This document shows positions 20,043-47,077 of a stretch of 51,261 nt of DNA, in pieces. Numbering within the stretch: the stretch's first letter is position 1; each line of letters opens with the position of its first letter. The notes beneath the pieces are model-generated. The model saw only the letters and a program-made list of their open reading frames with translations. It had not been told where the DNA came from and did not search any database. A program made the position numbers and the translations under genes. The DNA comes from a virus (Duplodnaviria > Caudoviricetes): the IMG/VR virus record IMGVR_UViG_3300036790_000209, positions 1 through 51,261 of that record. One strand, written 5' to 3'.

Positions 20043-20266
20043 CTCGTGAACTCACCCCCGTCGAAGTCGATAACCTTCCCTCTAAGGTCTTGATGGCGAT
20101 CGGACGAGGCCAATGGAACGACCGGTCCAGTACTCGCTTCAGCTTACTTGTCGGCCAGATGCGCCGTGACAATGCGCGAATCCATACCACTCTCTGCTAC
20201 CTCCATGGACTGGCATCTCTCGACTCCGAGGACATCGATATCCTACGCGGGTTGCTTACCTTATGA
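20039..20266 (+). CDS. Hypothetical protein upstream of TerL
   Basis: TTGA and ATGA overlaps with both neighbours. Confidence 0.5.
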   Translation: MTRELTPVEVDNLPSKVLMAIGRGQWNDRSSTRFSLLVGQMRRDNARIHTTLCYLHGLASLDSEDIDILRGLLTL

Positions 20267-22415: not shown

Positions 22416-22679
22416 ATGATCGGTGAGGAATTCGTGCGTCTACGCAAGGAATCCCGCGCTGGAGCTTGGTCCGCCCTGCAAGAAAAACTCATGCTCAACT
22501 TTGGCGTGCTGGTGCCCGAGGCGGCCTCCATGACCGACTTCTTCAAACTGTCGATGGCCATCGAGGACTTCTTGCGTACCGAACAGGGCAGCGAATCCTT
22601 GCACCCCATCGAAGCCCTGGCGAAGTTTCTCAACGAACCCATCCCTGTCGAGCCCGACGACAACGAGGTCATCCAGTGA
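22416..22679 (+). CDS. Hypothetical protein
   Basis: GTGA overlap with the portal start. Confidence 0.55.
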   Translation: MIGEEFVRLRKESRAGAWSALQEKLMLNFGVLVPEAASMTDFFKLSMAIEDFLRTEQGSESLHPIEALAKFLNEPIPVEPDDNEVIQ

Positions 22680-28459: not shown

Positions 28460-29701
28460 TTGCCGCTCGTAGGCGATATAATTCAACGATTCCGCGACTT
28501 GGCGCTCGACCAGTCTCAGTCGCTCGCTGCCCCGACGTTGTTAACCTTGACCCCTGTCGCAGGGGGGACTTTCCCGGCGAATACCTACTATGTAGTCATT
28601 ACCACCATCACTCCCTGGGGTGAAACGATCGCATCAAACGAAGTGAGTGTGACTCTAAGCGGGGGCAATGGTTCCTTCCAAGTTGGATGGTCTGGAGGTC
28701 AGGGAGTATCCGCGACCGGGCTTAATGTTTATGCAGGCGTTGCCACGGGGGCGGAAAACGAAGTTACTCGCTTTTCTACCCCGCTTGTAAACCCTACCAT
28801 TTCCGCCTACGAAGCCCAGGCGGCGGCAACTCCTCCTCCCACCAACAGCGCCTACCTTCCCGATACCGACGGCAGCTACCTGCGAGCATCAACCGTCTTC
28901 CGGTGGCTCTCAAGCGCTCTCCACGAGTCTAGCCGCATCGCGGGCGGCCTGCCCGACTACGGCGGTTTCCCCTCGGTTATCAACTGGGCTACCTACGTCG
29001 TCCCGGGGGAGTGGACGCGCATGATTCAGCCTTGGTATGACGGCTACCCGGTTTCCTTCTCTAACACCGGCGCGTTCTTCAAACGAAACATTGTAACCTC
29101 GTCGATCCTGGCAGGCTGGGCGGTTTCCTTCTACAACAACCAACTCGGCGTGGAATTATGGCCGCAGCCCGCGCGGACAGCCACCCAGACAACCCTAGCA
29201 TCCGCGATGACCGTGGCGGACACCTCGGCCACTTTAACTTCCACTGGCGGCTTCCTCCTGCCTACCTACGGCATGGTACGCTTCGGCACGGAAATCTGCG
29301 CCTACAACGGCATCAGCGGCAATCAACTAGTCGGCCTTATTCGCGGCCTCGGCGGCACCGTGCCTGCCGCATGGGCGAGTACCACGCAAGTTAACGAACT
29401 CAACGCTTTCTTTCAGGGACGCCGGGTATTCTCGGCTGACTACACTCCAGGCCAGTCAAACGTCAGCCTGCCGATCCCTTCCGGCTGGGGCGACACTTTG
29501 GTTGATTTCATGCTGGCCAAGTTCTATGAAACCGAACGCGACGCGGGCGCGGTGACTTCGCACATGAAAAGTTTCACCGACCGCATCGCCCTGTACATGC
29601 GCATGAACCGGCAGATCGCCGGGCCGCAACAGGTTGGGAATCGCGATTACCAGTTCGTGGTATTTGGCGGCACCAGATTTGGCGGAAACGTGATCCCTTA
29701 G
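28460..29701 (+). CDS. Head-tail adaptor/tail tubular A-like protein with inserted Fn3-like domain
   Basis: Position; LWPQP motif, C-terminal LVDFMLAKFY helix; GGTFPANTYYVVIT...GETIASNE. Confidence 0.55.
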   Translation: MPLVGDIIQRFRDLALDQSQSLAAPTLLTLTPVAGGTFPANTYYVVITTITPWGETIASNEVSVTLSGGNGSFQVGWSGGQGVSATGLNVYAGVATGAENEVTRFSTPLVNPTISAYEAQAAATPPPTNSAYLPDTDGSYLRASTVFRWLSSALHESSRIAGGLPDYGGFPSVINWATYVVPGEWTRMIQPWYDGYPVSFSNTGAFFKRNIVTSSILAGWAVSFYNNQLGVELWPQPARTATQTTLASAMTVADTSATLTSTGGFLLPTYGMVRFGTEICAYNGISGNQLVGLIRGLGGTVPAAWASTTQVNELNAFFQGRRVFSADYTPGQSNVSLPIPSGWGDTLVDFMLAKFYETERDAGAVTSHMKSFTDRIALYMRMNRQIAGPQQVGNRDYQFVVFGGTRFGGNVIP

Positions 29702-29716
29702 ATCAGGAGGGTTACC

Positions 29717-29950
29717 ATGGCACATCATGGTGGACGACGTAAGAACTTCAAGCCGGTCAAGCGCCCCGGCGCAGCCACTCGCAAGGCCCACAAAGCAGGC
29801 GAGTCCGTGGGCACTTGGGCCAAGGATAACTATCATGCCCCCGGCCTCAAGGGCGAACAAGCCCGCTTCGCTGTGATCGCAAAGAAGTGGCATCATCGCG
29901 GTGGCCACCGTAAGGGCCGCCGGGGCAGCAGCCGGGGAGCGCGGAGGTAA
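29717..29950 (+). CDS. Very basic small protein
   Basis: AGGAGG SD; VKRPGA...A...K...HH motif; R/K/H-rich. Confidence 0.7.
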   Translation: MAHHGGRRKNFKPVKRPGAATRKAHKAGESVGTWAKDNYHAPGLKGEQARFAVIAKKWHHRGGHRKGRRGSSRGARR

Positions 29951-29953
29951 CGC

Positions 29954-32581: not shown

Positions 32582-32976
32582 TGCACGTTCGCCATTTGCG
32601 TCCTGGGGAAGACTGGCCCGATACCCTGTTCATGGGTTTCGAAGGATCAGCGCTTGACCGGGAATGGTGCTGGGTAGCCGAGGAAGGCTCTATGGTCGAA
32701 GCAGGGCTGCTGGCCTGCCCGATGCATGGGGTTGTCTTCCTGATGCGCCTGGCGACCGCCGCAGGGGCTTCCAGGCTAGCTCTGCGAACCATCCTAAGTG
32801 CGGCCCTGGCCGAATCGAAAGAACGAGGCTTCGTCGGTTACACCACCCTCACCGATCCAACCACGCTTGAGGGGCGTAAGCTCGAACGTTTGGTCAAGCA
32901 CCTTGGCGGTCTTCAGTGGCCCCGCCCAAACGTGCTCTCATTTGGCCTGCTTACCCAGGCCGGGGAGAAACTCTAA
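32578..32976 (+). CDS. GNAT-like protein preceding ejection genes
   Basis: VRHLRPGED...WVAEE...pattern; typical podovirus position. Confidence 0.45.
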   Translation: MMHVRHLRPGEDWPDTLFMGFEGSALDREWCWVAEEGSMVEAGLLACPMHGVVFLMRLATAAGASRLALRTILSAALAESKERGFVGYTTLTDPTTLEGRKLERLVKHLGGLQWPRPNVLSFGLLTQAGEKL

Positions 32977-33440
32977 TGCCTCCCGTATTCGCTGCCATCC
33001 CCGGAATCCTAGCCGCGATCGGCGGGGGAAGCGCCGCCGCAGGGGCGGCTACGGCGGGAAGCCTTGCGCTTGGAGGGACAGAACTGGTAAAGTCACTCAC
33101 AGCGGGTGGTGCTCCTGCTGCATCCCCCTTCCCAACCACCACTCAGACCGCCGCGACCAAGAACAACTTGGCTCAAATTGTATCGGCGGGCAGCGGCAAC
33201 GTGCAGCAGGCTACCGGAGGCGGCACCAGCCCTGGCTACCTCGCTGAACTTCTAGGCTCCCAGAGTGGCAGCTTGAGTAACCTAAATCAGCTCCAAGACC
33301 TCTTGAGCGCCTCGCCCAGCCTAACAAGTGGAGGGACACCGGCCAATCCCGCCGATTTGTCGATCCCCCCTCAAAGCAACGCCTCGCTCAGCGGCGGCTC
33401 GGGGCTGGCCGACTACGGCAACATCTTTGGAGGGGGCTAA
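32976..33440 (+). CDS. Internal virion/ejection protein
   Basis: G/A-rich hydrophobic N-terminus; TAATG overlaps. Confidence 0.6.
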   Translation: MPPVFAAIPGILAAIGGGSAAAGAATAGSLALGGTELVKSLTAGGAPAASPFPTTTQTAATKNNLAQIVSAGSGNVQQATGGGTSPGYLAELLGSQSGSLSNLNQLQDLLSASPSLTSGGTPANPADLSIPPQSNASLSGGSGLADYGNIFGGG

Positions 33441-34051
33441 TGGATGCCTTCGCACAACTCGGACAGATTTTCCAAAACTCCAGTGGAGGAGCAAACTGGG
33501 GTAACATCGCTAAGACCGGCCTGACCGGCTTCGGCCTAATCGGTAACATTCTGGCTCAGCAGAAGCAGAATGCGGCCCTCAACCGCATCGCTTACTATCA
33601 GAAGAATCCGGCCGCCGCCGCGCAGCAGATCAACTCCCTCACTCAGCCTCTCAGCCAAGGGCTGACTCAAGATGTTGGCAACAACGTCCAAGGCTACCTT
33701 GCCGAACGTGGCCTCAGCGGCAGCCCCAACGTAACCGCTGAAGTCCTGGCGCAAGCCTTGGCCCCCTACCAACAACAAAATCAGCAAACCGCCACGCAGG
33801 AGTTTATGAGTCTCCTAAATCCAGCGGGGGCCACCTATGGCAAGCCTGGCGACTTGAGTTCCCTATTAAAACTCTGGAGCCCCGCGACCGCGATCAGCTC
33901 ACCCACCGCCGGCCCCGGCGGGCAGGCTTACAACCCCATCTATGGCGGGCAGCCTGGAACTCCACCCACTTTTAATCTGCCATCGAACAACCCTGGCGCT
34001 CCACCCGACATTGACGCTTCCCCAGGACTCGACTTGTTTGGGAGCTACTAA
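33440..34051 (+). CDS. Internal virion/ejection protein
   Basis: Q/N/G-rich; LAERGLSGS motif. Confidence 0.6.
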   Translation: MDAFAQLGQIFQNSSGGANWGNIAKTGLTGFGLIGNILAQQKQNAALNRIAYYQKNPAAAAQQINSLTQPLSQGLTQDVGNNVQGYLAERGLSGSPNVTAEVLAQALAPYQQQNQQTATQEFMSLLNPAGATYGKPGDLSSLLKLWSPATAISSPTAGPGGQAYNPIYGGQPGTPPTFNLPSNNPGAPPDIDASPGLDLFGSY

Positions 34052-34359
34052 TGGCGGACTATTCGCTTGAATCGTTGGGAGCTAAATTTACCGAGTATGG
34101 AGGAAAGCGCCTTGGCATGTTAATCCCGTGTCCCAACTGTGGGGTCAATGTAGGTGTATATTTCGCCCCATTATCCGAGGACTTCAAAGCCAACTTCGGT
34201 GATAAAGGCCCAACATGGACGGCGACTGGCGACACGCTTAACGCGGTTACTTTACACCCCAGCGTGCGCGTGCTTGGCCACTTTCATTCGTGGGTCCGTA
34301 ATGGGATGCTCTGCGTAGATTCCCCCTTTGAGTGCAAAAAGGACGAGGAGTTTAAATAG
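34051..34359 (+). CDS. DUF6527-like protein
   Basis: CPNCG...WTATGDT...TLHPSV...HFHSWVRNG. Confidence 0.6.
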   Translation: MADYSLESLGAKFTEYGGKRLGMLIPCPNCGVNVGVYFAPLSEDFKANFGDKGPTWTATGDTLNAVTLHPSVRVLGHFHSWVRNGMLCVDSPFECKKDEEFK

Positions 34360-35621
34360 TGGGCGCGTTATTCCAATCCGTGTCTTCGCAACTCGGCAAC
34401 CTGGGAGGCTCCTACGCGGCCGCGCGCGACGCAGGCATCGAGCAGAAGAACCAGGCGGAGACCCAACAGTTCGATCAGGCTCAGAAACTCCGCGACTACC
34501 TCGAAACGCAGCGGATGGATAACCTCTACGGGCAAGTCCAGAAGGCCAACTTAGCTCGCCAACAGGCCGGTCAATGGGACATCGTTGGCCAACCTATGCA
34601 GACGAACAGTGGCGGCTATGGCGTCGTTGAGCGCAACACAGTCACGGGCGACATCCGTACACGCCCCCTCCCCGCCGACATTCAGCCTCGAAACGAAGAC
34701 GAGGTTAAGTGGGATCAATTCCGTTCCACCTACAAACAAGCATTCGGCACCGACCCATCGCCCGATCTCAAAACAGCCTTCTTCGATAAATTAGGCGGCG
34801 TTGCCGCGCCCAAAATGGACGACTTCACGGCCTGGCGCGAGGCGTTCAAGGTGCAACATGGCCGTTACCCCAACGCCACGGAGATTAGTGAGTTCCACCG
34901 CGCCCCACGGGCAAATATCATCCTCAGCGGGGATGCCCTCGACAACATGGCTGAAGCCGTAGCGGGTGGACAGACAAAACTTCCTTCTGGCAACCTTGGA
35001 GTTCAAGTACTCAATCGCCTGAAAGGGCTAAACTTAAAACTCCCCACCCAGTTAACCCCGTCCGTCCAGGCTAACCTATCCACTCGCGCTGACGCTCTCT
35101 CAACGGCCATCGACACTATTGAGCGCATTAAGCCGAACTTACCGCTACTGCAATCGCTTCCGGCCGCCTCTCTCGTCGATCTGGCGCAGCATCCCGACAG
35201 TGTGGCCCAGTTTTTAACCCGCATGCTCTCAAAGCCTTATTCAGCGGATAAGCAGGCCCAAATCGCTCAACTCGCAGGCGATCTTCGCTCCCTTCAAGAA
35301 CAGGTGAATATCCTGCGGCAGCCTCTTGGAGCCACTGGCTTCCGGGGCAAGGAAGGGTGGGAAGCCCTGCAAATGCAGATTGTCAAGGCCATGGGGAATC
35401 CGCAAATGAGCGCGGTCACCCTCAACAACACCGAATCCACCATGCACAAACTCCTCAACTCCACCCTCGCAACACTGGGGGAAGCACCTGCCTCGGACGG
35501 TCAAGCCCCCACGTCCGGGGTATCCCCCAGCCCACCCCCCGGCGCTACAATGAAAGTGCCGGGAAGCGATGGTAAGTTACATTGGAGTGACGGCGCGCAT
35601 GACCTCGGGGTGGTCCAATAA
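34359..35621 (+). CDS. Internal virion/ejection protein
   Basis: Helical, Q-rich, 420 aa; position in the ejection cluster. Confidence 0.55.
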   Translation: MGALFQSVSSQLGNLGGSYAAARDAGIEQKNQAETQQFDQAQKLRDYLETQRMDNLYGQVQKANLARQQAGQWDIVGQPMQTNSGGYGVVERNTVTGDIRTRPLPADIQPRNEDEVKWDQFRSTYKQAFGTDPSPDLKTAFFDKLGGVAAPKMDDFTAWREAFKVQHGRYPNATEISEFHRAPRANIILSGDALDNMAEAVAGGQTKLPSGNLGVQVLNRLKGLNLKLPTQLTPSVQANLSTRADALSTAIDTIERIKPNLPLLQSLPAASLVDLAQHPDSVAQFLTRMLSKPYSADKQAQIAQLAGDLRSLQEQVNILRQPLGATGFRGKEGWEALQMQIVKAMGNPQMSAVTLNNTESTMHKLLNSTLATLGEAPASDGQAPTSGVSPSPPPGATMKVPGSDGKLHWSDGAHDLGVVQ

Positions 35622-36997
35622 TGGCTAATGGAACGCCGGTCAAACTGGACTTCTCGAAAGCACAGCCGATCGCCCTGGACTTCTCAAAGGCGCAGCCAAT
35701 GACTCCAGCCTCGTTGCAAACACAAGGGATCGGTCCCGAGTTGCCGACCAACATGAGCATCCAGAATTACCCTCTGGCCACGCGCGTAAAGGACTCCCTC
35801 AAGCGCATGTTAATGGGTACTGAAGCGAGCTTGCCCGCGCTTGGAGCCGGGACCGCCGTTGCCTTAACTCCAGCCACGGGAGGTGCCAGTGACGCACTCC
35901 TGGCAGCCATCCTGGGCGGCGCGGCGGGCACCAATCTAAAACAACTCACCGCTCACTTTATGCATCAGCCAAACGCCCCCAAGGACATGAAGCAGGCTAT
36001 CGGCGAGGAGGAACTAGGCGGCCTTGAACAAGGCGAGTATGAAGCGGGAGGCCGCGTACTCGACTCAATCCTAGGCCGCTGGGCCGGATCGCGCGTGGCC
36101 GCCGCCTCACGTAAACGCCTCGCTGATTTAACCGCCATGGCCGGGCCCGCCGAAGAAACCAGTTCCAACATCACTAAAGTGCTGCCCGATCTCGACCAGA
36201 CAGTTGCTACGCTAGGCCACAATCCACGTACTCCGCGAGATGTGCTGAATGTAGTCCAGCGGACAAGCGACCGCCTCGATCAACAATTTAACCAGGAACT
36301 TTTCCGCATCGGCAAAGCGCGCGTGATGCCCAAGGAGATTGCCGACCGCATTCGTGCCGAGATCACCCCCGACATGCGCATGACCGCCGAAGGGCGCGCG
36401 GAAGCAAAAGAACTCCAACAGGCTGCCCTTGAGTATGAGCGTCCATGGACGCTTAACCAACTCAACTCTAAACGCATGACCAACAACGCTCGCTTGAGCG
36501 CTTTCTACAAACGCGAGTCTCAAGGACAAGCTACCGCCCTATCGGCCGCGCAAACCAAAATTATGAAGTCCGTCCGCGACGGGGCCGCCGAGATCGTCTA
36601 CGACGTGATGAACTCGCTACCGAACTCATCGATTGACGCTCGCCTGCTCAAGCAGAAACAGGGAGCGCTATGGGACTTGAGCGATCAACTCGATGAGCGA
36701 ATCGATAAACTCACCAACGCCCAACTCAACTTCGAGGGTCGTACACTACGGCAGAAAGTTCAACCTTCCGCCTACCTGTCAGACCGCAACATTCACGGGT
36801 ACTTTCGCGGCCTGGGCGACCTGATCCCCGGCGGCGGCCCCGAACGGCAGGCCATAACTCAAGCGCGCAAAGGGTTCCGTCCTTCTCGTGCTCTTAGTCG
36901 GCAGGCCGTGATCGCGGCTACCCCTCTCGCAAACTTTCTACGGGCCAGCGGAGTATATTCGAATCTGAACGACCAAGAGGGCCAAGATGCCCATTGA
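35621..36997 (+). CDS. Internal virion/ejection protein
   Basis: Tandem LDFSKAQP repeat, G/A-rich hydrophobic segment, helical body. Confidence 0.55.
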   Translation: MANGTPVKLDFSKAQPIALDFSKAQPMTPASLQTQGIGPELPTNMSIQNYPLATRVKDSLKRMLMGTEASLPALGAGTAVALTPATGGASDALLAAILGGAAGTNLKQLTAHFMHQPNAPKDMKQAIGEEELGGLEQGEYEAGGRVLDSILGRWAGSRVAAASRKRLADLTAMAGPAEETSSNITKVLPDLDQTVATLGHNPRTPRDVLNVVQRTSDRLDQQFNQELFRIGKARVMPKEIADRIRAEITPDMRMTAEGRAEAKELQQAALEYERPWTLNQLNSKRMTNNARLSAFYKRESQGQATALSAAQTKIMKSVRDGAAEIVYDVMNSLPNSSIDARLLKQKQGALWDLSDQLDERIDKLTNAQLNFEGRTLRQKVQPSAYLSDRNIHGYFRGLGDLIPGGGPERQAITQARKGFRPSRALSRQAVIAATPLANFLRASGVYSNLNDQEGQDAH

Positions 36998-37190
36998 GCG
37001 CTTTGTGTCCAAGGAAGCCGAGCGGCGTAACCTGGCCTACCGCCACATGCACGGTATCCCTTACACCGCAACCACCGCCATCGTGGCTGGCCGCGCCCAC
37101 AAAGTTAAACACTCACGCAACGCTAAGCGCCGCAAGATCGACGCGCGCCAGCGGCGTAAGGTAGCCCACCAAAGGGGGAGCCGCCGTTGA
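36987..37190 (+). CDS. Small basic protein
   Basis: MPIERFVSKEAERR..AY.H; R/K-rich. Confidence 0.6.
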   Translation: MPIERFVSKEAERRNLAYRHMHGIPYTATTAIVAGRAHKVKHSRNAKRRKIDARQRRKVAHQRGSRR

Positions 37191-39739
37191 AACTACGATG
37201 GATTATTGGAACATGGACACTTTTGCTGTTATCGGCGATCCCTGCGCGGGCTCAATTTACGCAAGTCAGCGCGACGGTTACAGACCCCAACGGGGCTCCT
37301 TTCGCGAACGGCACATTCACCGCTCAATTCTATGATCCCGGCACCAGTGGTCAGCTTCCACTCATCAATGGTTCCACCTTTCAAAAGGTAATGGCCGGAT
37401 CGCTAACCTCTTTTGGTTCCTTTACCGTAACGCTGGCTGACAACAACTACGTAGCCACTTCATCCGGTGCCACAGGTACTCAATGGCGCTTCACGATCTG
37501 CTCGCAACCCTACACCACCCTTGGCGGCCGAACCTACTGCACCACCGTCTACCAGACCACTATCACCGGCGCATCGATGGACATCAGCGCGGGGATTGAC
37601 GCTAACGCTCCTACCCTCCCATCGACCAATGGCACCTATGTTTATGTCGGCCCGCTTTCAGGGATTCCAGCTACCTGCACGGTAAGCCAACTCTCTTTTA
37701 TTACCGATGCTGCCGCAGGCCAAAATGTTTACCTTTGCACCACGACGAATACCTGGACGCAACAATCAGGTGGTGGTGGAGGAGGCAATCCAGCCGGGAA
37801 CGTCGGCGACCTCCAAACCAAAGCCACCTCCACGACCTTTGGGGCTTCGCATATCAACGATTCGAACGGCGCAATGATCGCTTCGGAATCGCTCTCGATT
37901 GCAGGCCCACACCCTTTCGTGGACGTAAACGCGTATGGCGCGGACCCCACAGGGACGACTGACTCCACAACGGCGATTCAGACGGCGATTACCGCATCGT
38001 GCGCCAATTCAACGCATCCGACCATTCTTTTTAGCGGGCACTATAAAGTAAGCCAGCCGCAGACCCCTTCCACATCGCCCGTTTTCACGATCTGTAACGC
38101 GCTGACGTTGATGGGACTCTCCGACCCCACGGCGGATCAATTCGCCTTTGCACCCCAATCGCGGATTGTAGTGAGCGCCGGATCATCGCCTAACACGGCA
38201 CCAGTGTTCGATTTCGGAAACGAAAACACGCTTAAAAACATTGAAGTGGATGGCTACAACCAAGCCGTGAAAGCGGACGGCGCATTTATCAGCATCGACG
38301 GTTCGTGTTTGTCGTCGGCGGTAACCGGGCAGTCTTTAAATTCGCCCCTGGTGATCGACGGGAATTCGATCTGGATATGGGTGGAGAAGCATAGCTGCCT
38401 GGACAGCAATTCGGTATCCGTGCCGGACATGATCTTCAATTCCAACGACCCTAGCGGCGCGATGGGACTGTATTACATCCAAGACGTGCTGATGAGCGGC
38501 GGCGGCGTGGAGTGGCTCGCCACGGATGACACCACCTCAGGTGTAGCTGGCACCATGGAGTTCTCACGCATCCAGCAGGAAAACTGCGGATCGTCAAGCT
38601 TTCTGAGTTTTACCGGATCGGCTCCCACCGTAATCGGTCCGATCACCATGGATCAAGTAGGACAGGCGGACTGTTCTGGCGGCTACTTAGTGAACTATGA
38701 CGCGGGAGGGTCGATCAGCGGATTAACGATCAATCAAAGCTTGGGCGGATCAGGAGCCGTGGATATGCAGACCGGCTCCATCAGCGACTTTAAAGCGTCG
38801 CAGGGGAGCGGATTGATCGTTGGAAACGGCGGCGTTGCGCGCACAAATTCGAATGGATGGGATTATTACGTTCCAACTACCGCAGCAAATCGACTTCTCA
38901 ATGTCAGGAGCACTGGCGATTCAGGAGCCCCACTACTGCGCGGATTCTCGACTTCCTCATCATATGCATCACTGGCGCTCGACCCCACGTATGGATTGCT
39001 CCTGGGAGACGGCGCAAGCTACGGCTATAACGCGGGCATTGATGAGACCACGCAAGGCGATGCGGATGTCAGCTTCGCGGGGAACCTGCCGCCCACCGGA
39101 TTGACTGCCACGGCAACGACCGGTGGAACGCTCGCGGCGGGAACTTACTATATCTGGGTGCGAACGGTAAAGAGCGGCGCTCAATGCGCCTCTGCGGCAG
39201 GGAATGACGTATCCGCATTCTCGCAGGCTGCAAGCGTGGTGCTCAGCGGCTCGAACGATGCGATCGCCACAAGTTGGACTGCACCATTATTCGCGCCATA
39301 CTCTACCCCGCATTACTGTGAAGTATGGGCCAACACCGCCGTAGTTACCGGAAATGACGGCGTCAACTATGCAAACGTTGCAATCTCCAGTACGTCTTTC
39401 ACCTTGACCGGCTCTAATACGACCTGTTGCGGATACTCTTCAAGCCATCCCAACGTCGCCTATATGTACAGCGCGCATCGCTTCACGCCCGACGCGCTGG
39501 GAATCAACACGCTCACGCCCCAGTATGATCTGGATGTGGCGCACACGCTGGCCGCCAATTCCGGCATCCGCTCAACCGCCATCACGCTGACCGCCAACCA
39601 AGGATTGCTTGAGCCTCTTTCGACTCCTGGCAGTTCCAGCAGCACATGCACGGCAGGCCAGATATGGGCGGACGCAAGTTACGTATACGTATGCACGGCA
39701 ACCAACACGATCGAGCGGGCGGCACTCAGCACATTTTAG
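37187..39739 (+). CDS. Tailspike/fibre-like beta-helix protein with Sec signal peptide
   Basis: VNAYGADPTGTTDSTTAIQTAI is a pectate_lyase_3-like start; N-terminus MKLRWIIGTWTLLLLSAIPARA|Q. Confidence 0.75.
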   Translation: MKLRWIIGTWTLLLLSAIPARAQFTQVSATVTDPNGAPFANGTFTAQFYDPGTSGQLPLINGSTFQKVMAGSLTSFGSFTVTLADNNYVATSSGATGTQWRFTICSQPYTTLGGRTYCTTVYQTTITGASMDISAGIDANAPTLPSTNGTYVYVGPLSGIPATCTVSQLSFITDAAAGQNVYLCTTTNTWTQQSGGGGGGNPAGNVGDLQTKATSTTFGASHINDSNGAMIASESLSIAGPHPFVDVNAYGADPTGTTDSTTAIQTAITASCANSTHPTILFSGHYKVSQPQTPSTSPVFTICNALTLMGLSDPTADQFAFAPQSRIVVSAGSSPNTAPVFDFGNENTLKNIEVDGYNQAVKADGAFISIDGSCLSSAVTGQSLNSPLVIDGNSIWIWVEKHSCLDSNSVSVPDMIFNSNDPSGAMGLYYIQDVLMSGGGVEWLATDDTTSGVAGTMEFSRIQQENCGSSSFLSFTGSAPTVIGPITMDQVGQADCSGGYLVNYDAGGSISGLTINQSLGGSGAVDMQTGSISDFKASQGSGLIVGNGGVARTNSNGWDYYVPTTAANRLLNVRSTGDSGAPLLRGFSTSSSYASLALDPTYGLLLGDGASYGYNAGIDETTQGDADVSFAGNLPPTGLTATATTGGTLAAGTYYIWVRTVKSGAQCASAAGNDVSAFSQAASVVLSGSNDAIATSWTAPLFAPYSTPHYCEVWANTAVVTGNDGVNYANVAISSTSFTLTGSNTTCCGYSSSHPNVAYMYSAHRFTPDALGINTLTPQYDLDVAHTLAANSGIRSTAITLTANQGLLEPLSTPGSSSSTCTAGQIWADASYVYVCTATNTIERAALSTF

Positions 39740-39754
39740 CGGAAGGGAGGTTCG

Positions 39755-41989
39755 ATGAAGCTCAAACTAAGCGCGCTCTTGTTGTTCATCCTCCTGATGG
39801 GAGGGTGGCAGGCAGCCGAAGCGCAGTATCTCGGTGGAGGTTCAATTACTGCTTCAGGGAGTGGATGCGTCACTACAAACTGCGTATTCGGTAACCTTGG
39901 GCAGGATACCGCAAGCGTTTCCTTTACCGTGTCTGGAACCTATAGCGGAACCCTGCAATTCGAAGTTAGTCAAGACGGCACGCACTTTGTTAATATCAAT
40001 GCATACCCTCCAAACAGCACCACGGCGGTTACCGGCACGACCGGCACTGGTACTTGGACCGCGGGAGTCGCCGGGATGACCATCTTCCGCATTCGCTGTT
40101 CAGCTTACACTAGTGGAACAGCTTTGGTGACCATCAATGGGTCTCATGCGGTAGCAACTTCCACCATTACCGCTGGTGGTGGAGGGGGCGGCGGAGGAAG
40201 TTACTATCAAACAATCGAGAATGATGGTTCAGCGCAGGACCAGGAACCTGCGTTGAATCTCATTCCCGGCAGCAACGTCACTTTGGGATTCACCGATACC
40301 CCCGGGGTGTCAACTAATGTGACAGTGAATGCGAGTGGAGGCGGCGGCGATACGATCACAAGCCCCAATAGCACGCTGGCCGTGGGAGGAACCTCGACGA
40401 ATACGACCCTAGACCTGGAAGGCGCTGCCGGGAAAATTATGGCCGGGGCCACTCCCGCATTGACCCCCACGCCGACGCTAGGGGTAAGCGGAACGGCCGG
40501 TAATATTTCATTCTTCCCCGCTTCCGGCAACTTTGAGACCACCCTTGGAAGCGCTGCCACGGCCAGTAATACGATCTTGTTCCCCGCCACGGTCCCGACA
40601 ACCCTTTATGGCTTCCATTGCGTCGTTGCGAGCACAACTTGCACGCTGACGAGTAACGGTTATGCGTACAATGCGATCCCCATCGCAGACCTCGCGAGTT
40701 CGGCGATTACCATTGCCGGTACTTCCGTGTCGCTCGGCGGTTCCACATCGTCGCTGCCTTCTCCGGGCGTCATTGGCGGAACGACTCCCGCAGCCATTAC
40801 CGGAACGACGCTCACAGCCAACACATCGATTACCGACAGCGGGCTCACCGCCTCCTTGCCGATCTGCACGACATCCGGTAAGGTTCTCAGCTCAACCTGC
40901 ACGGCCTTGGTAACCATCGCCGATCTAAATGCCAGCGGCACTCCAGGCAGCACCACCTACCTGCGAGGAGACGGAAGCTGGAGCACCCCGTCAGGTAGCG
41001 GAACGGTCAATAGCGGAACATCCGGGCAGGATTCCTATTACGCATCCACTGGAGCGGCCGTCAGCGGAATCAATACCGCAGGCGGCGGCTCAAACCCGCT
41101 GTGGGGTTCGATTACCTCTCTTGCGCAAGGGCAACAGATATGCGCCGACGCGACACCCAAGCTTATCAATTGCACGCCGGGGGTGGTGCCTAATCCGCAG
41201 ACCGGCACGACTTATCCAGTGGTGCAGGGGGACAACGGGAAGTACCTAAGCTTCTCCAATGCGTCCTCGATTGCCGTAACAGTTCCCTCGGCTGCGAGCT
41301 TAAGCGCTAACTTCGCCTTTCGCGCCTGCGACATCGGGACGGGGACCGCAACCCTCACGCCCACTACCTCCACGATCAGCTACACGACCGGAAACTCCTA
41401 CACTTCGGCTGCCTCCAGCATGGCGCTGACGACCGGCGAATGCGCCAACGTCTATAGCGACAACACGAATTATTTTGCCAATCAGACCATCGGCGGCAGC
41501 GGGACCGGACTCTCTGGAATGACGAGTGGTCAGGTTCCTGTTGCAGCGTCCGCCACTACCGTCACGTCTTCAAAGGCCCTGGCAGGCAGCGGCTCTGGGA
41601 TCACCACCGGCCCGACAAGCGCGACCTCGCTCGACGTGGCGGAGATGACCGGAACAAGTGGACAGATCGCTGATGGCGGCGTATTGGTCTCCAAGCTGAC
41701 GCAAACGATTTGCAGCGGGACAATTGCGTTGGGAACCTCGGCCATCGCATCGGGTGCGGCGGCTACCACAGTCACAGCCACATGCACCGGCCTCGCCACC
41801 ACCGACACGATGATGCTCTCCTTCAATGGCAGCCCACTTGCCGTCACCGGCTACGTGCCGAGCGCCAGTGGCATGCTGACAATCATCGACTGGCCCACAT
41901 CGAATACGATTAACGTGTCCGTGGTGAACAACACAGCTTCCAGCGTCACGCCGGGAGCCATCACGCTGAATTACCGGGTGACCCGGTGA
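39755..41989 (+). CDS. Fibre/adhesin-like T/S/G-rich protein with Sec signal peptide
   Basis: MKLKLSALLLFILLMGGWQAAEA|Q; TTYLRGDGSW fibre motif. Confidence 0.7.
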   Translation: MKLKLSALLLFILLMGGWQAAEAQYLGGGSITASGSGCVTTNCVFGNLGQDTASVSFTVSGTYSGTLQFEVSQDGTHFVNINAYPPNSTTAVTGTTGTGTWTAGVAGMTIFRIRCSAYTSGTALVTINGSHAVATSTITAGGGGGGGGSYYQTIENDGSAQDQEPALNLIPGSNVTLGFTDTPGVSTNVTVNASGGGGDTITSPNSTLAVGGTSTNTTLDLEGAAGKIMAGATPALTPTPTLGVSGTAGNISFFPASGNFETTLGSAATASNTILFPATVPTTLYGFHCVVASTTCTLTSNGYAYNAIPIADLASSAITIAGTSVSLGGSTSSLPSPGVIGGTTPAAITGTTLTANTSITDSGLTASLPICTTSGKVLSSTCTALVTIADLNASGTPGSTTYLRGDGSWSTPSGSGTVNSGTSGQDSYYASTGAAVSGINTAGGGSNPLWGSITSLAQGQQICADATPKLINCTPGVVPNPQTGTTYPVVQGDNGKYLSFSNASSIAVTVPSAASLSANFAFRACDIGTGTATLTPTTSTISYTTGNSYTSAASSMALTTGECANVYSDNTNYFANQTIGGSGTGLSGMTSGQVPVAASATTVTSSKALAGSGSGITTGPTSATSLDVAEMTGTSGQIADGGVLVSKLTQTICSGTIALGTSAIASGAAATTVTATCTGLATTDTMMLSFNGSPLAVTGYVPSASGMLTIIDWPTSNTINVSVVNNTASSVTPGAITLNYRVTR

Positions 41990-42606
41990 TCCGCAGACTT
42001 GCATCCATTGCCCTCCTCCTGGGCCTGATCGCGCTAGGAATGCGAGCGCATCAACTTAGCGGTCCGATGTTTCCCGGCCCGGGAATGCCAGCGTCCAGTG
42101 GAAGCTACACCGGGATCACCTGTCAAAACTCCACCACGCATGATACGAACGACGGCGGTGGAGACACTACGGCTACGGTTGGAAACTACTGTACAACGGG
42201 AAACGATCCATCTGGCTATACACTGACTAATTTGAATGCCGATTTGCGTGTGGCGGCGCTGAGCACGCTTTATTTAGCTCTCTATACCGACACCACCAGC
42301 GGATGCACGGGAAGCGTCCCGCATTGTCAAAACACGCTAATCTGCGATGCCTCCCTCGGCCCTAGTATAATCGTAGGAACGAATTCCGTGCTCCCCACTG
42401 GATGCGGGACGCTCGCCGCCAATACGATTTATTGGATAAATTACCAAACAGGGGACGGAACTGATGCCCTGGGAGTTAATTCAACAGGACCAACGGACTT
42501 GCCATGGAGAAGCGGTACAACAGCCGGAACCTGGCCCAGCCCATTCGCGGCGGATAACGCAGACAACGTAGACGACCAACTTTGGATGACAGGGACCAAC
42601 AATTAA
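41986..42606 (+). CDS. Cys-rich beta-sandwich-like protein with signal peptide
   Basis: MIRRLASIALLLGLIALGMRA; LALYTD, TLAANTIYWI. Confidence 0.65.
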   Translation: MIRRLASIALLLGLIALGMRAHQLSGPMFPGPGMPASSGSYTGITCQNSTTHDTNDGGGDTTATVGNYCTTGNDPSGYTLTNLNADLRVAALSTLYLALYTDTTSGCTGSVPHCQNTLICDASLGPSIIVGTNSVLPTGCGTLAANTIYWINYQTGDGTDALGVNSTGPTDLPWRSGTTAGTWPSPFAADNADNVDDQLWMTGTNN

Positions 42607-44567
42607 TGCGTCGATGTCTCCTGTTGGCTCTGATCCTTGCCGCGCCAATCACCCATGCGCAATCCGTATTCCCAGGGCAGAGCGGTGATCCGGTAGGATA
42701 TGCGGCCATCGGCTCGCTGGGAACGTCGGCGTGTCCGTCAGTCACCAGCGGAACGTCCGGCAGTCCAAACTTCATCTCTAACTGTAAATACAGCACGTGT
42801 CCGTCGCTGACTGGAATCTCCTACGTGGTGTTTATGTCCGTGGATTTCAACTGCGGGACGGACACTCTAACCGTGGACGGCAGCCACATCACCTTCTACG
42901 GCTCGCGCATACAGTCAAACAACTCCTGCACAACAGGCTGCTTCGGCGTTAATACCTATGTGACGGGCGCCTACGAGACTTTCATGTACACGTCGATCAC
43001 GCCGCTCGCGTCCCAAAACGCGACTCCTCCCGGCTACACATGGCCGTCGGCGGGAGCGGGCGAGAATACGACCGATTGCACATCAGACGCCTATTGTACG
43101 CCGGGGGCACACAGTTATCAGTACGGCATCCAGCTAGGTTCATCCGCCGCGCAGCATGTTTACATCGACCACGCCGACGTGTGGGGCTTTGGAAATTCCA
43201 TTGACCTGTATCAAGCTACCGTTGGACCCACCACGATCGCGGGCAGTCAGATTCACGATGCCGCCGACCCGGACACTTACAGTTACCACACCGACGGCCC
43301 GGGCTATCTAAACAGCGGCGCGGGCGTCAACAACGTCATCGTTCAGGGGAACACAATTGCTTCGCTTGGGAACACCAACGGGATTGCATTCCAGGCGGCC
43401 ACGAGCGGTTATAGCGGACTGCTTATCAATTTTAACTACCTCAGCGGCTTCGGTAAAAACTTCGCCGGCTGCGATCCAGGCTCGACGCCCTGCACCAACT
43501 CGACGGCCTACGGCAACGTCTTTGGCACCGATGTGATGCCTTACTACGGCCCGAATTACGGCTGGCAGGGGGGCACAAATTCCGTGTGGGCCTGCAACAA
43601 AATTGCTTTCGCCACGGGCACCACATGGACCGGCGGCGACGGCTGGACGCCCGTTTCGGGCGACAATGGGAAATACTGGCTCTATAGTTCAGATAGCGCG
43701 CCCAGCAGCTCGACCGACCAAGGAGGCAATACTATCTGCGGAATTTTGAATCCAGGCGATCTTGCTTTCAAGGCGGAAGGAACAGGCACAACTTCATCGG
43801 CCCAGACCGTCACGTTGACCAACGGGAACAGCGCCACGCTGACCATCAGTTCGGTGGCGCTCGAAACGGGAACGCAGTTTACGATCTCAGCCAACACCTG
43901 CGGATCATCGCTCACGTCTGGAAGCAGCTGCACGATTTCAGTCGAGTTCACCCCCGGCGCGCAGGGTCCGCAAACCGATCAGTTGCAGATCACCGACAAC
44001 TCGCCGTCATCCAGCAGCCCCGAATTCGTGCCGCTGATCGGACTGGGCACGAGTGGCAGCGGTTCAGCCAGCACTCCCACGTTCTCTCCGGGCGCGGGGA
44101 CGTATGTCGGAACGCAAACGGTCGCAATTTCTACCTCGGCAGGAACAGTGATCTGTTGGAACACGACAGGCTCGCCAGCCACGAACGGCGCGACCGGCTG
44201 CACCACTGGAACGCTCATCAGCGGGACATCGGGGAATATTACCGTATCGTCCAGCGAGACAGTCTACGCCGTGGCGGGCGGAACGGGATATACGGACAGT
44301 TCGGCAGGCAGCGCGGCCTATGTGATTGTGACCATCCCCGCGACGCCTAACATGAATATGTTAGCAATGTTTGGGAGGGATGGTAAACCTTTTAGCCTTA
44401 GTGGGTTCGTGCTCTCCGGTGACGGCGAAGCGCAGCACGCAGTAGGACGCCACGATAACCACGAAAATCAGGAATGGCATGTCATTTCTCCTATCGATCA
44501 AATTGTGGGCATACAGAATAGCACACTTTCTGGATTGAGCGCGCTGCTATTTGGTGTCCCCTGGTGA
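42606..44567 (+). CDS. Secreted-type beta-helix protein with choice-of-anchor-D/ASH Ig and chitobiase/Fn3-associated domains
   Basis: MRRCLLLALILAAPITHA|Q; SAQTVTLTN...NTCGSSL..GSSCTISVEFTP; TPTFSPGAGTY. Confidence 0.75.
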   Translation: MRRCLLLALILAAPITHAQSVFPGQSGDPVGYAAIGSLGTSACPSVTSGTSGSPNFISNCKYSTCPSLTGISYVVFMSVDFNCGTDTLTVDGSHITFYGSRIQSNNSCTTGCFGVNTYVTGAYETFMYTSITPLASQNATPPGYTWPSAGAGENTTDCTSDAYCTPGAHSYQYGIQLGSSAAQHVYIDHADVWGFGNSIDLYQATVGPTTIAGSQIHDAADPDTYSYHTDGPGYLNSGAGVNNVIVQGNTIASLGNTNGIAFQAATSGYSGLLINFNYLSGFGKNFAGCDPGSTPCTNSTAYGNVFGTDVMPYYGPNYGWQGGTNSVWACNKIAFATGTTWTGGDGWTPVSGDNGKYWLYSSDSAPSSSTDQGGNTICGILNPGDLAFKAEGTGTTSSAQTVTLTNGNSATLTISSVALETGTQFTISANTCGSSLTSGSSCTISVEFTPGAQGPQTDQLQITDNSPSSSSPEFVPLIGLGTSGSGSASTPTFSPGAGTYVGTQTVAISTSAGTVICWNTTGSPATNGATGCTTGTLISGTSGNITVSSSETVYAVAGGTGYTDSSAGSAAYVIVTIPATPNMNMLAMFGRDGKPFSLSGFVLSGDGEAQHAVGRHDNHENQEWHVISPIDQIVGIQNSTLSGLSALLFGVPW

Positions 44568-44769: not shown

Positions 44770-44973
44770 ATGCATCATCACTGGATCAGCCAAGGGATCG
44801 GATACGGGGCAGCCGGGATGTGGGTTCTGTCATCCGCGGTAACCACAATGCCGCCGTATACCGGATCGAATTACGGCATGAAGTGGCTCTATGCATTCTT
44901 GCACCTGCTAGCTGCTAATCTCGACAAGGTGCACATCCCCGGAAGCGCTGGCGACAAGACTGCGCAGCCGTGA
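44770..44973 (+). CDS. Holin-like membrane protein
   Basis: Two hydrophobic segments; AGGAGG SD; upstream of the endolysin. Confidence 0.55.
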   Translation: MHHHWISQGIGYGAAGMWVLSSAVTTMPPYTGSNYGMKWLYAFLHLLAANLDKVHIPGSAGDKTAQP

Positions 44974-45269
44974 CGCGCTTCACTCTTCACGATGAGAAGG
45001 ACAAAGTGCCGCATATGGTTCCCGAGATTTGGCGCTACATCGCGATTCTGGTGATCGGCATCCTCTGTGGAGGGGCACCGGAATATGCGGTGATGACCAT
45101 GGATACCCATAATGCGATTACGGTCCCCATCGTGGACCATGAAATCGACGTGAAGAATGCGGCGTTACAGCAGGAACTCGAAGACATGAAAGAACAGTTG
45201 TCGTCCATCGAGGGCAAGGTAGACGGCTTGGTGACATTTGAATACCAAGGGAATCGACACGGAAAATGA
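44970..45269 (+). CDS. Single-TM coiled-coil protein (lysis module)
   Basis: IAILVIGILCGG followed by a coiled coil. Confidence 0.55.
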   Translation: MTRFTLHDEKDKVPHMVPEIWRYIAILVIGILCGGAPEYAVMTMDTHNAITVPIVDHEIDVKNAALQQELEDMKEQLSSIEGKVDGLVTFEYQGNRHGK

Positions 45270-45685
45270 AGCTGACCCTGCAACGCCGAGCGTTCGATTC
45301 CGCCGGTACGCCTGGGCAGCTATCGGTCAATGGCCGGTCATTCTGCTTCACCCTCGAACGGGCTAAAGATGACGCGGTCCATCCCTGCATTCCAGCGGGC
45401 GTTTACCGGATTTTGTTGCAGAATTCACCCCACTTTGGTAGGTTAATGCCGCATTTACAGGACATTCCAGGCCGCACAGACATTTTGATCCACTGGGGCA
45501 ACTACGTCATGGACTCGGAAGGGTGCATTTTGGTGGGCATAGACCCCGCGATGAAGGGCATGGCTGGGTATTTTCTAGGCCTGTCGCGGGCCGCCTTTGA
45601 TGATCTTTGGAAGCAACTCGAACCCGCGCAAGAGGCGGGAATTGAAATCGAAGTAATCAACGCGCCGACGGAGGCGCAATCCTGA
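45266..45685 (+). CDS. DUF5675-family putative endolysin
   Basis: TPGQL...CFTLE...CIPAGVY...SPHF...ILIHWGN...SEGCILVG. Confidence 0.85.
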   Translation: MKLTLQRRAFDSAGTPGQLSVNGRSFCFTLERAKDDAVHPCIPAGVYRILLQNSPHFGRLMPHLQDIPGRTDILIHWGNYVMDSEGCILVGIDPAMKGMAGYFLGLSRAAFDDLWKQLEPAQEAGIEIEVINAPTEAQS

Positions 45686-45698
45686 GGAGGGAACCAAA

Positions 45699-45986
45699 AT
45701 GGCGAATATAGCGGCTGTGGTTATTGGAGACGTAGAGGTAGGCGCGGAGAAGGTGCTGGACTGGCTCAAGGATGCCGGGAAAGTGGTTACCAAGGCAGGA
45801 GCGGCTGAGCCCCAAGTGATCGCCGCACTCGGCACGCTGCTGGGAGCGGTGGGGATTGCAGTGGCGGACACGGCGGCGGATGCGGCGGCCCCATCGTTCG
45901 CACTGACCTCGGAGACCTTTAACGCAGTCAAGGCGGTGTGGCCGGACATCACCGCGTTCATGGCCACGCTGGGTGTGAAGCTCTGA
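45699..45986 (+). CDS. Hydrophobic lysis-region protein
   Basis: GAGGAGG SD. Confidence 0.6.
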   Translation: MANIAAVVIGDVEVGAEKVLDWLKDAGKVVTKAGAAEPQVIAALGTLLGAVGIAVADTAADAAAPSFALTSETFNAVKAVWPDITAFMATLGVKL

Positions 45987-45997
45987 TCGGCACCAAC

Positions 45998-46318
45998 ATG
46001 AGCGACACGCCGCTAACTCCAACCCAACTGTCTGTCGCCGAACTGCGCGCCGCCAAAGAAGGCTACGCTCATCGCGTGCTGGTGGGATTCGATCAGTTTG
46101 TAGGCTCCATCTTGGGCGAGCAGAACGATCAAACCATATCCTCGCAGACGGAAATCGACGCGCACAAGAAAGTCTGGTTCCACGCCTTCGCGGTTGCGCT
46201 GAATGATGGACTAGACCTGATACAGAAGTCTCATGGCCAGTTAGCTCAGGCCGGGGACGTAGAACGGGCCAAAGAAGCGATTGCCACCGATACGAAGGCG
46301 CTCGATCAGGGCCATTGA
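45998..46318 (+). CDS. Phage hypothetical protein (D....G..DQTISS motif)
   Basis: VLVGFDQFVGSILGEQNDQTISS. Confidence 0.6.
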   Translation: MSDTPLTPTQLSVAELRAAKEGYAHRVLVGFDQFVGSILGEQNDQTISSQTEIDAHKKVWFHAFAVALNDGLDLIQKSHGQLAQAGDVERAKEAIATDTKALDQGH

Positions 46319-46414
46319 TCTTGCCGGGACCGCTGATACCGGCAGGGACGGAGGGTATCTGGCTGGGGCTCGCGTTCTGCCGCTGGGAAAGCAAGAGGAC
46401 GCGAGCCTTTCCTT

Positions 46415-47077
46415 ATGAACCGCTTCAAGCAAATCCTCGAATGTGGAGCGCTGATCGCACTGACCGTGGCCATGATCGGCCTGATTGCCATCGAAGGCAG
46501 TCTGCGAAAGGCCCTCCCAGACATCCTCGCTAGCGCCGCGCGCGGGGCAGCGAAGTTCGCCGATGCTTCGGATGCCCTCAATACCGCCGCACAGAACGAA
46601 ACCAAATACCTGGCCAACGGATCGCGCGAGCTAAACAAGACGGTTGCCGACGCGCACGACCTGTTGATTCATACCGATCTCTCGCTTAATGGGCCGGAAG
46701 GGCTATTACCTACGCAGACTAAACAACTAGCCCTGATGGAATCCCAAGCCAATCAGGCCATCGCCGATCTGGATGCGGCGGTGAAGCAGGCTCAGCCAAT
46801 CCTCGCGAATCTGTCTGTGGCGGCTTTTGGCGCATCGCAGGCTGCGAATGACCCCAACATAGCCAAATCTCTCGCTGGGCTCGCCGAGGCCACCCGGAAG
46901 GCCAACATCGCCCTATTAAACCTCGACGCCATCTCGGCTAGCGGGAATCGGGATGCCCAAGCGCTCGAAGCACGGTTGAAACAGGTACTCAAACCGGCTA
47001 GCCTTCTGAAGACCGCCTTGTACCGTGCGCTCGGGATCGCTGTCCCGGCAGCGGAGATTGCAGGGGCTTTACGATAG
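46415..47077 (+). CDS. Membrane-anchored coiled-coil protein (spanin-like?)
   Basis: N-terminal TM and long Ala-rich helix at the end of the lysis cassette. Confidence 0.55.
   Translation: MNRFKQILECGALIALTVAMIGLIAIEGSLRKALPDILASAARGAAKFADASDALNTAAQNETKYLANGSRELNKTVADAHDLLIHTDLSLNGPEGLLPTQTKQLALMESQANQAIADLDAAVKQAQPILANLSVAAFGASQAANDPNIAKSLAGLAEATRKANIALLNLDAISASGNRDAQALEARLKQVLKPASLLKTALYRALGIAVPAAEIAGALR

Follow-up and report, generated by a model that had tools for sequence, protein, structure and literature searches.

Why would a tailed phage place a signal peptide on each of its fibre- and spike-like proteins? The question is raised by four consecutive genes, ORF1 to ORF4, at positions 37187 to 44567 of the virus record IMGVR_UViG_3300036790_000209 from IMG/VR; the whole stretch of 51,261 bp was analysed and is called the window below. 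Capsids and tails of tailed phages are assembled wholly in the cytoplasm. A preliminary description of the window had placed four adjacent fibre- or spike-like genes in this region, and we recovered the open reading frames (ORFs) and their N-termini as described. As judged from their sequences, the four proteins are very likely exported, and export with oxidative folding is well supported. The four host-recognition proteins probably fold outside the cytoplasm. We consider it fairly probable that in this short-tailed soil phage the genes serve, as one module, to bind the receptor and cut polysaccharide, and that its particles are built in two compartments.

Four predicted Sec leaders in a row

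Leaderless tail and ejection-protein genes lie upstream of ORF1 (Table 1), placing the four-gene run in the slot of the receptor-binding proteins (RBPs). Each gene has a plausible start and a leader with n-, h- and c-regions, in agreement with the basic, hydrophobic and small-residue cleavage patterns noted earlier. The N-termini read MKLRWIIGTWTLLLLSAIPARA↓Q (ORF1), MKLKLSALLLFILLMGGWQAAEA↓Q (ORF2), MIRRLASIALLLGLIALGMRA↓H (ORF3, where the −3/−1 site is ambiguous and ALG↓M is an alternative to MRA↓H) and MRRCLLLALILAAPITHA↓Q (ORF4). The predicted leaders are thus 22, 23, 21 and 18 residues long, and the next residue is Gln in three and His in one. The true start of ORF4 is most likely the ATG at 42606, not the TTG at 42582.

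Leaders were called with a home-made heuristic for n-, h- and c-regions (not SignalP), which is crude. By this heuristic, a basic n-region, an h-region of 7–15 residues and small residues at −3/−1, as for Sec export and cleavage by signal peptidase I (SPase I), were found in 4/4 genes. Across the window it flagged five of the 35 ORFs of at least 150 aa, namely the four genes and a signal-anchor protein (46415–47077), and no further large virion gene bore a leader. Its flags in phage lambda fell on Lom, Rz and one false positive; J, Stf and Tfa went unflagged. No ORF of at least 400 aa was flagged in Tunturi 3 (0/11) or Tunturi 4 (0/8). Two of 10 were flagged in Mx8, both from internal starts (codons 37 and 28) and one on the strand opposite to the annotated genes; we read these two as false positives. 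Since the heuristic rarely fires in the window and the controls, four leaders in a row in the fibre slot are not attributable to chance. In lambda, Tunturi 3 and Tunturi 4, the fibres were indeed leaderless, as the preliminary description had taken to be normal for fibres.

A lipobox Cys at +1 was absent from all four leaders. The twin-arginine translocation (Tat) consensus is S/T-R-R-x-F-L-K in a long, weakly hydrophobic leader. The ORF3 and ORF4 leaders contain RR without the rest of this motif, and the RR is not kept in ORF4 homologues. With leaders of 18–23 aa that are Leu-rich and lack the consensus, Tat export was ruled out; these features, together with the disulfide signature given below, point to Sec export.

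Conservation of the leaders in homologues

Of 18 non-self homologues of ORF1 that were fetched, 16 have an N-terminal leader (one call was extended upstream and one truncated). In an alignment of the ORF1 N-domain (16 rows), the leader varied in sequence and length, Gln23 was nearly invariant and the next ~125 residues were well conserved (FYDPGTSGKLPLLNGSTFQ, SSGATGTQW); the C-terminal parts beyond were unrelated. The ORF2 search returned 82 proteins including the query, and 61 were flagged as leader-bearing, a count that includes at least one false positive, while many of the negatives look N-terminally truncated. All 12 N-terminally aligned homologues of ORF4 have a leader, followed by the mature start (P)WPGQ.GN. 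For ORF3, no homologue of 113–361 aa was found besides itself.

The leader trait therefore recurs in homologues of three of the four proteins. The leaders are kept in character, not in sequence, and their junction with the mature protein is fixed, usually as A↓Q. Because they recur in homologues, in the same slot of a related phage and in other viral contigs, the leaders appear to be neither chance nor mis-called starts. The conservation also speaks against the objection, raised in the preliminary description itself, that the true starts lie downstream, ORF3 excepted as it has no homologue.

In several ORF2 homologues (P0061, P0064, P0066, P0085, P0094 and P0107), 5–10 glycines follow right after the predicted cleavage (…A↓QQGGGGGGGG…), and the window's ORF1 and ORF2 have internal runs of G6–G9. 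The glycine runs may be flexible tethers.

The hydrophobic N-termini might still not be export signals, but mis-called starts or uncleaved helices acting in the tail or as a membrane tether, with folding in the cytoplasm. The heuristic nature of the leader calls and the disagreement of gene callers over two starts would allow this. However, in dozens of homologues the frame is open and the n/h/c pattern is kept, while its residues vary. Conserved residues would be expected of a structural helix, and non-coding DNA would be expected to lose the open frame, so neither fits. The mature-domain junction fixed at A↓Q also argues against this explanation, as do the Cys enrichment and even parity, which are confined to leader-bearing proteins, and we find it hardly credible.

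Alternatively, each protein could exist in two forms, a cytoplasmic one, from an internal start or incomplete export, that builds the virion and an exported one that works on the envelope. In-frame starts do occur in or just after the hydrophobic regions (TTG at codon 13 of ORF1, ATG at 15 of ORF2, ATG at 19 of ORF3 and TTG at 15 of ORF4), and public gene callers took downstream starts for ORF1 and ORF3. However, the internal starts have no well-spaced Shine-Dalgarno sequence and are not conserved in homologues. In addition, the even-Cys signature points to a disulfide-bonded functional form, unlike a cytoplasmic one. Two forms are therefore improbable.

Cysteine content and parity

A bias towards even numbers of Cys is a recognised mark of disulfide-bonded exported proteins. 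The four proteins contain 52 Cys in 2453 residues (2.1%), versus 34 in 5551 (0.6%) in 19 other late proteins of the window (Fisher p = 1e-8), bearing out the earlier remark on their many Cys. Parity was counted in a pool of the window, Tunturi 2 and 17 viral loci, from which the ORFs in the overlap of L081 and L003 were dropped and Cys-free ORFs excluded. Among 40 leader-bearing ORFs of at least 300 aa, the number of mature Cys was even in 34, odd in 5 and zero in 1, whereas the other ORFs were even in 24 cases and odd in 32 (one-sided Fisher p = 8.7e-6). The Cys enrichment and even parity, as read from these predicted proteins, are the signature of disulfide-bonded exported proteins.

The +1 residue was Gln in 24 of the 40 leader-bearing ORFs. 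This resembles the Q-rule described for leaders of Bacteroidetes (PMC5837995); a term search of that paper gave no mention of Acidobacteria.

Leader-bearing proteins in the same slot of other phages

A phage related to the window, G001, shares head and tail proteins with it at 42–87% identity, and the genes at 28460..36997 are syntenic with their counterparts in G001 (42–63% identity for these tail and ejection genes). Six consecutive leader-bearing proteins (1094, 702, 317, 1024, 463 and 555 aa) follow the homologous 474-aa protein in G001, and the first two share the ORF1 N-domain. An unrelated IMG/VR phage (L002) has three leader-bearing proteins. Among 14 further IMG/VR loci, retrieved via the conserved module of ORF2, 12 have 1–6 leader-bearing ORFs of at least 150 aa, up to six in a row; the genes directly before some of these runs we take, from their N-terminal sequences alone, to be baseplate J/I. 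Searches of GenBank phages by tblastn with ORF1 and ORF2 gave no match, and neither did IMG/VR scans with the whole ORF2, the 458-aa upstream protein or the ORF1 N-domain alone.

In the cultured Acidobacteriota podovirus Tunturi 2 (PP885685), leaders were found on gp12, gp13, gp14, gp16 and gp17, including proteins annotated as 'tail fiber protein' (gp13), 'pectin lyase' (gp14) and 'virion structural protein' (gp17). The large proteins gp12, gp13, gp14 and gp17 have 10–34 Cys and gp16 (149 aa) has 2. Like the window, Tunturi 2 thus has a run of leader-bearing, Cys-rich proteins before its lysis genes, and its gp17 is resembled by the Ig-like part of ORF4; unlike the window, it belongs to another phage lineage, linked by a weak terminase match only. 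The term 'signal peptide' does not occur in the main text of the Tunturi paper (PMC11924767). The survey of related phages that had been proposed as a check thus showed the leaders to recur in G001, in 12/14 IMG/VR loci and in Tunturi 2, but not in Tunturi 3 or 4.

Architecture of the four proteins

By its predicted structure, ORF1 is tailspike- or depolymerase-like. The right-handed beta-helix of tailspikes was found in ORF1, the one protein folded, where the AlphaFold2 model reached a pLDDT (predicted local distance difference test score) of 70–90 over residues 244–540. The Pfam family Pect-lyase_RHGA_epim scored 25.5 bits, below its 27-bit cut-off. ORF1 matched the PHROG tail protein family 17312 with E = 1e-11, and its C-terminal motif matches the end of that family. 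Foldseek matches included AlgE alginate epimerases, lyases, phage tailspikes, WceF and RbmB. The N-domain was modelled with a pLDDT of 82.5, and it had no Foldseek match in the PDB at E <= 0.001. Weak matches were to prealbumin-like sandwiches, including some phage neck, collar and tail-tip chains, which did not suffice to identify the domain as a tail anchor. Complex prediction of the mature N-domain (23–172) with the 413-aa tail protein (28460–29701) scored 0.00, giving no verdict.

A two-Cys hairpin motif (C..G/SQ..[FW]..D....Y.C...N.[WI]) occurs twice in ORF1, at residues 164–190 (37676–37756) and 821–850 (39647–39736). Other proteins contain up to three copies (P0024), and the motif matches the C-terminus of PHROG 17312. 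An FN3-like domain (GGTL..GTYYY) is common to the 413-aa tail protein (28505–28750), the 875-aa nozzle-like protein (30236–30523) and ORF1 (39089–39346). Of the three carriers, ORF1 is of the exported type and the other two are leaderless.

ORF2 is, from its sequence, a fibre-like modular protein with a C-terminal knob. No Pfam family matched it, and its nearest Atlas clusters, which serve as leads only, are viral and tail-fibre-like. Residues ~195–345 (40337–40789) form a module of ~150 aa that recurs, at 70–84% identity, in dozens of leader-bearing fibre proteins that are unrelated in their other parts, where it lies near the N-terminus, in the middle or at the C-terminus. Fibre parts that are shuffled are not usually conserved so strongly, and this module may serve in docking or branching. 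ORF3 is a small Cys-containing protein; the Atlas has the 206-aa form, and the nearest clusters are Acidobacteriota hypothetical proteins of ~210 aa. ORF4 combines a beta-helix-like N-terminal part with ASH/Ig-like repeats (Pfam ASH, E = 3.5e-9).

These features can be compared with those of the tailspike and depolymerase RBPs (P22 gp9 type; CBA120 TSP1–4; depolymerases of Acinetobacter and Klebsiella phages). The window shares with them the right-handed beta-helix core (ORF1), the slot after tail and ejection genes, several RBPs in a row and a conserved N-domain with exchangeable distal parts. These known RBPs, however, are leaderless, and they fold and join the particle in the cytoplasm, whereas every member in the window carries a Sec-type leader and paired cysteines.

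A phage-like element in Acidobacteriota genomes

Homologues of the ORF1 beta-helix core were found at 75 loci of metagenome-assembled genomes (MAGs) labelled mostly Acidobacteriota. Capsid-tail genes were present beside them: a major capsid protein (MCP)-like gene (PHROG 14242) at 50 loci, an adaptor-like gene (SU10-adaptor-like) at 68 and a nozzle-like gene (PHROG 3287) at 48. Most loci cover only 10 kb on either side, and these three genes were identified at 1–2 loci and by similarity at the rest. A terminase lay within about 1–20 kb in 5/5 genomes tested. The possibility that the ORF1 relatives are ordinary secreted bacterial enzymes captured by phage was ruled out, as the PHROG and terminase searches showed phage-like capsid-tail modules.

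Of the 75 spikes, 68 begin with a hydrophobic stretch followed by QGSRxDD. Median identity was 85% for the MCP-like protein, present at 50 of the 75 species-level loci, and identity across loci was 70% for the adaptor, 69% for the nozzle, 63% for the spike N-domain and 34% for the spike beta-helix. A conserved N-domain with a variable beta-helix looks like the usual pattern of RBPs whose N-terminus is held by the particle. One and the same beta-helix core follows N-domains that differ between phage lineages. When the tail and head proteins of the window were compared with those of this Acidiferrales element by hhalign, only the shared FN3-like domain was found, indicating that the two are different lineages.

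The element is ~34 kb long, for example at ~20,300–54,000 of G004:C13 (L101, L065, L102; loci L004–L078). Its gene order is terminase, a portal-like gene, two opposite-strand PilZ/response-regulator genes, scaffold-like, MCP-like and Zn-ribbon protein genes, the leader-bearing beta-helix spike, the SU10-adaptor-like gene, a leader-bearing NHL protein, the nozzle-like gene and an SLT transglycosylase. In the one element examined whole, Pfam found neither an integrase nor a gene for replication, and the borders are formed by host genes, MacB/FtsX at one end and DsbA-like and NAD synthase at the other. Both a highly successful family of prophages and a domesticated element resembling a gene transfer agent are possible readings.

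Virion parts or enzymes of the cell envelope

The proteins may be exported and yet never become virion parts, serving as late soluble or surface enzymes or adhesins that cut or coat exopolysaccharide or lipopolysaccharide. They might then free the progeny, prevent re-adsorption to debris or block superinfection, and the tail hub would bind the receptor. Several observations fit. The fold of ORF1 matches AlgE, RbmB and WceF as well as tailspikes, the Ig-like repeats of ORF4 are those of giant bacterial surface proteins, and host binding could fall to the FN3-like and CBM5/12-like parts of the 875-aa nozzle-like protein. The lom gene of lambda is an exported non-virion gene among tail fibre genes. 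However, the four genes take up 7.4 kb of a 51-kb genome, and relatives have up to six such genes. Translationally coupled, they lie exactly where fibres are encoded, with ejection-protein genes before them and lysis genes after. No other fibre candidate was found among the 48 window ORFs scanned against Pfam and PHROGs (ORFs below ~60 aa and some ORFs of the crude list were left out). N-domains track the phage lineage while beta-helix cores are exchanged, as in RBPs.

Two Cellulophaga phages bear on the same choice. Classic leaders with Gln at +1 were found on gp091–094 of phi10:1 (KC821618) and gp087 of phi18:3 (KC821620), and GenBank annotates these as 'structural protein', based on experimental tandem mass spectrometry (MS/MS) proteomics; in those stretches, the remaining MS-detected proteins that we checked lack a leader. 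Like the window genes, they are consecutive late leader-bearing genes beside a pectate-lyase-like gene and before lysis genes. Unlike the window proteins, they have MS/MS notes, a Bacteroidota host and few Cys (0–3), and no sequence relationship was found. The slot, the modular N-terminal domains and these MS/MS-annotated proteins suggest that the four proteins attach to the virion, and we regard a role wholly outside it as unlikely.

Three further exported systems were compared. The MAT (mosaic adhesive trimer) fibres of Bdellovibrio bacteriovorus are described with a signal peptide, a conserved ~130-aa beta-rich domain, variable phage-like trimeric modules and, in some, disulfides (PMC10769870). 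Leader, conserved N-domain and variable fibre outside the cytoplasm are common to both, a likeness of layout. MAT fibres are, unlike the window genes, bacterial genes for the predator's own surface and not a phage virion module, and the same architecture on a cell surface fits the non-virion role. The S74 chaperone-protease domain of many MAT members was not among the window's Pfam matches. WceF of Pantoea stewartii, the most thoroughly studied exported enzyme of tailspike type, is a trimeric beta-helix of tailspike fold that acts on exopolysaccharide and is exported folded by a Tat leader (PMC7949094). It resembles ORF1 as an exported beta-helix and is among the ORF1 Foldseek matches, but its Tat leader differs from the short, Leu-rich leaders without Tat consensus, and the disulfide signature, of the window proteins. 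Lom and Bor of lambda are likewise phage genes with signal peptides, one of them among tail fibre genes; they are small outer-membrane proteins from a prophage, however, not large late-operon fibre or beta-helix proteins. Lysogenic-conversion morons were judged unlikely, as the Pfam matches of 31 further ORFs included no integrase and the genes lie in the late operon. Proteins with Q-rule leaders and of unknown function are described in Porphyromonas phages (PMC10367356). Literature term searches found no description of Sec leaders on tailed-phage fibres as an assembly route.

Several points weigh against export followed by virion attachment. The evidence for cleavage, export, disulfides and virion presence in this phage is inferential throughout. 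The heuristic flagged 43 of the 75 MAG loci where the motif count gave 68. In the public gene call for the same contig, ORF1 begins at codon 13 and has 838 aa, ORF3 begins at codon 34 and has 173 aa, and both leaders are lost; by the same token, standard annotation would hide the trait. ORF3 is an orphan with an uncertain start, and its leader is supported by its own sequence only. The mature ORF2 has 13 Cys, an odd number, and the fold matches of ORF1 include secreted bacterial enzymes beside tailspikes. The annotated fibres of Tunturi 3 and 4, from the same host genus as Tunturi 2, are leaderless, so export is not needed to infect Acidobacteriota and the trait is not universal. As the record is only ~93% complete, a leaderless fibre gene could be missing from it. 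The Cellulophaga MS/MS detection could reflect co-purifying envelope material. The MAT fibres show the same layout on a cell surface, and modularity alone is thus no proof of virion docking.

The preliminary description had inferred periplasmic, disulfide-dependent folding, followed either by joining of virions or by remodelling of the host surface. Its first part is well supported by the leaders, the A↓Q junction and the Cys. Between the two outcomes the sequence cannot decide, and the slot, the N-domains and the Cellulophaga annotations favour the virion.

A proposed model of assembly in two compartments

In the model that we favour, the four genes would be co-expressed late with the virion genes, and each protein would be made as a Sec pre-protein. 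The pre-proteins would be exported unfolded and cleaved by SPase I, mostly exposing Gln. In the periplasm, DsbA-type oxidative folding and oligomerisation would follow, with structural disulfides, as the Cys statistics suggest. The leaderless, Cys-poor capsid, tail hub and ejection proteins would meanwhile assemble in the cytoplasm. Until lysis, the exported enzymes may also be active on envelope polysaccharide that the host is still making. Holin triggering would then mix cytoplasm and periplasm inside a still-intact outer membrane, and fibreless particles would gain ORF1 via its N-domain, with the other three proteins attaching to ORF1 or the tail. The steps up to folding in the periplasm have support from the sequences and the Cys statistics; the action on polysaccharide and the docking at lysis are inferred.

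More tentatively, and with some doubt, we suggest that assembly in two compartments is common to a widespread group of tailed phages. The group would include Acidobacteriota phages from soil, related phages in other phyla and perhaps also a domesticated phage-like element of Acidiferrales. Every RBP would pass through Sec, be cleaved and be locked by disulfides in the periplasm, and the particle would be completed just after the holin opens the inner membrane. If so, tailed phages would have an assembly route that is new, and the extra-stable host-recognition gear of soil phages would be explained. Models of assembly order and lysis timing would need a docking step after holin action if RBPs are routinely exported and oxidatively folded. 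To fold, recombinant fibres or depolymerases of these phages would require a periplasmic or oxidising environment, and leader style, such as Gln at +1, would hint at the host. Annotation pipelines hide exported phage proteins when they trim leaders, as for ORF1 and ORF3 here. Cultured systems exist for direct testing: Tunturi 2 on Tunturiibacter (host T. psychrotolerans X5P2), and Cellulophaga phi10:1 and phi18:3.

Gene layout and other features of the window

Pfam and PHROG matches gave a short-tailed-phage gene layout across the window (Table 1). The head protein is distantly similar to that of the podovirus Mx8. The upstream proteins at 28460..36997 have a Cys content of 0–1%, and the five to six leaderless ones ending at 36997 are likely to be internal or ejection proteins. 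Judged from the source names of homologues, the host is probably an acidobacterium of Acidiferrales type. No integrase was found among the Pfam matches of the window ORFs scanned.

Table 1. Positions of the four leader-bearing genes and of other features in the window
Feature	Position	Strand	Remarks
IMG/VR virus record (window)	whole record		51,261 bp; ~93% complete
Terminase	20263–21996
Portal	22466–24388
Major head protein	26920–27903
Leaderless, Cys-poor tail and ejection-protein genes	28460..36997	+	413, 875 (nozzle-like), 203, 102, 420 and 458 aa; PHROG matches
ORF1 (850 aa)	37187–39739	+	TTG start at 37187, strong Shine-Dalgarno GGGGGAG; predicted leader residues 1–22 (37187–37252)
ORF1 domains			Leader helix; ~125-aa beta-sandwich N-domain; right-handed beta-helix ~244–540; FN3-like ~635–720; Cys-stapled C-terminal motif
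ORF2 (744 aa)	39755–41989	+	ATG start at 39755, strong Shine-Dalgarno GGGAGG; predicted leader residues 1–23 (39755–39823)
ORF3 (206 aa)	41986–42606	+	GTG start at 41986 overlaps ORF2 stop (GTGA), coupled; predicted leader residues 1–21 (41986–42048) if GTG start used
ORF4 (653 aa from ATG 42606; 661 aa from TTG 42582)	42606–44567	+	ATG at 42606 overlaps ORF3 TAA (TAATG), coupled; predicted leader residues 1–18 (42606–42659)
Putative lysis region	44770..47077	+	Small membrane proteins, DUF5675 protein, signal-anchor protein; hydrophobic N-termini
DUF5675 protein	45266–45685	+	Pfam DUF5675, E = 6e-27
Family-A DNA polymerase		opposite to the four leader genes

The region downstream of ORF4 presumably serves lysis. 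The gene at 46415–47077 (+), 3' of the DUF5675 gene, encodes 220 aa, with a membrane anchor at the N-terminus that looks uncleaved and a long helical part after it; its product may be an inner-membrane spanin or another lysis or ejection factor. In the early region, a Prok-JAB gene (9119–9946, − strand, E = 3e-7) adjoins a ThiF-family E1-like gene (10050–10727, − strand, E = 7e-22), and the two appear to form a ubiquitin-like conjugation/deconjugation pair.

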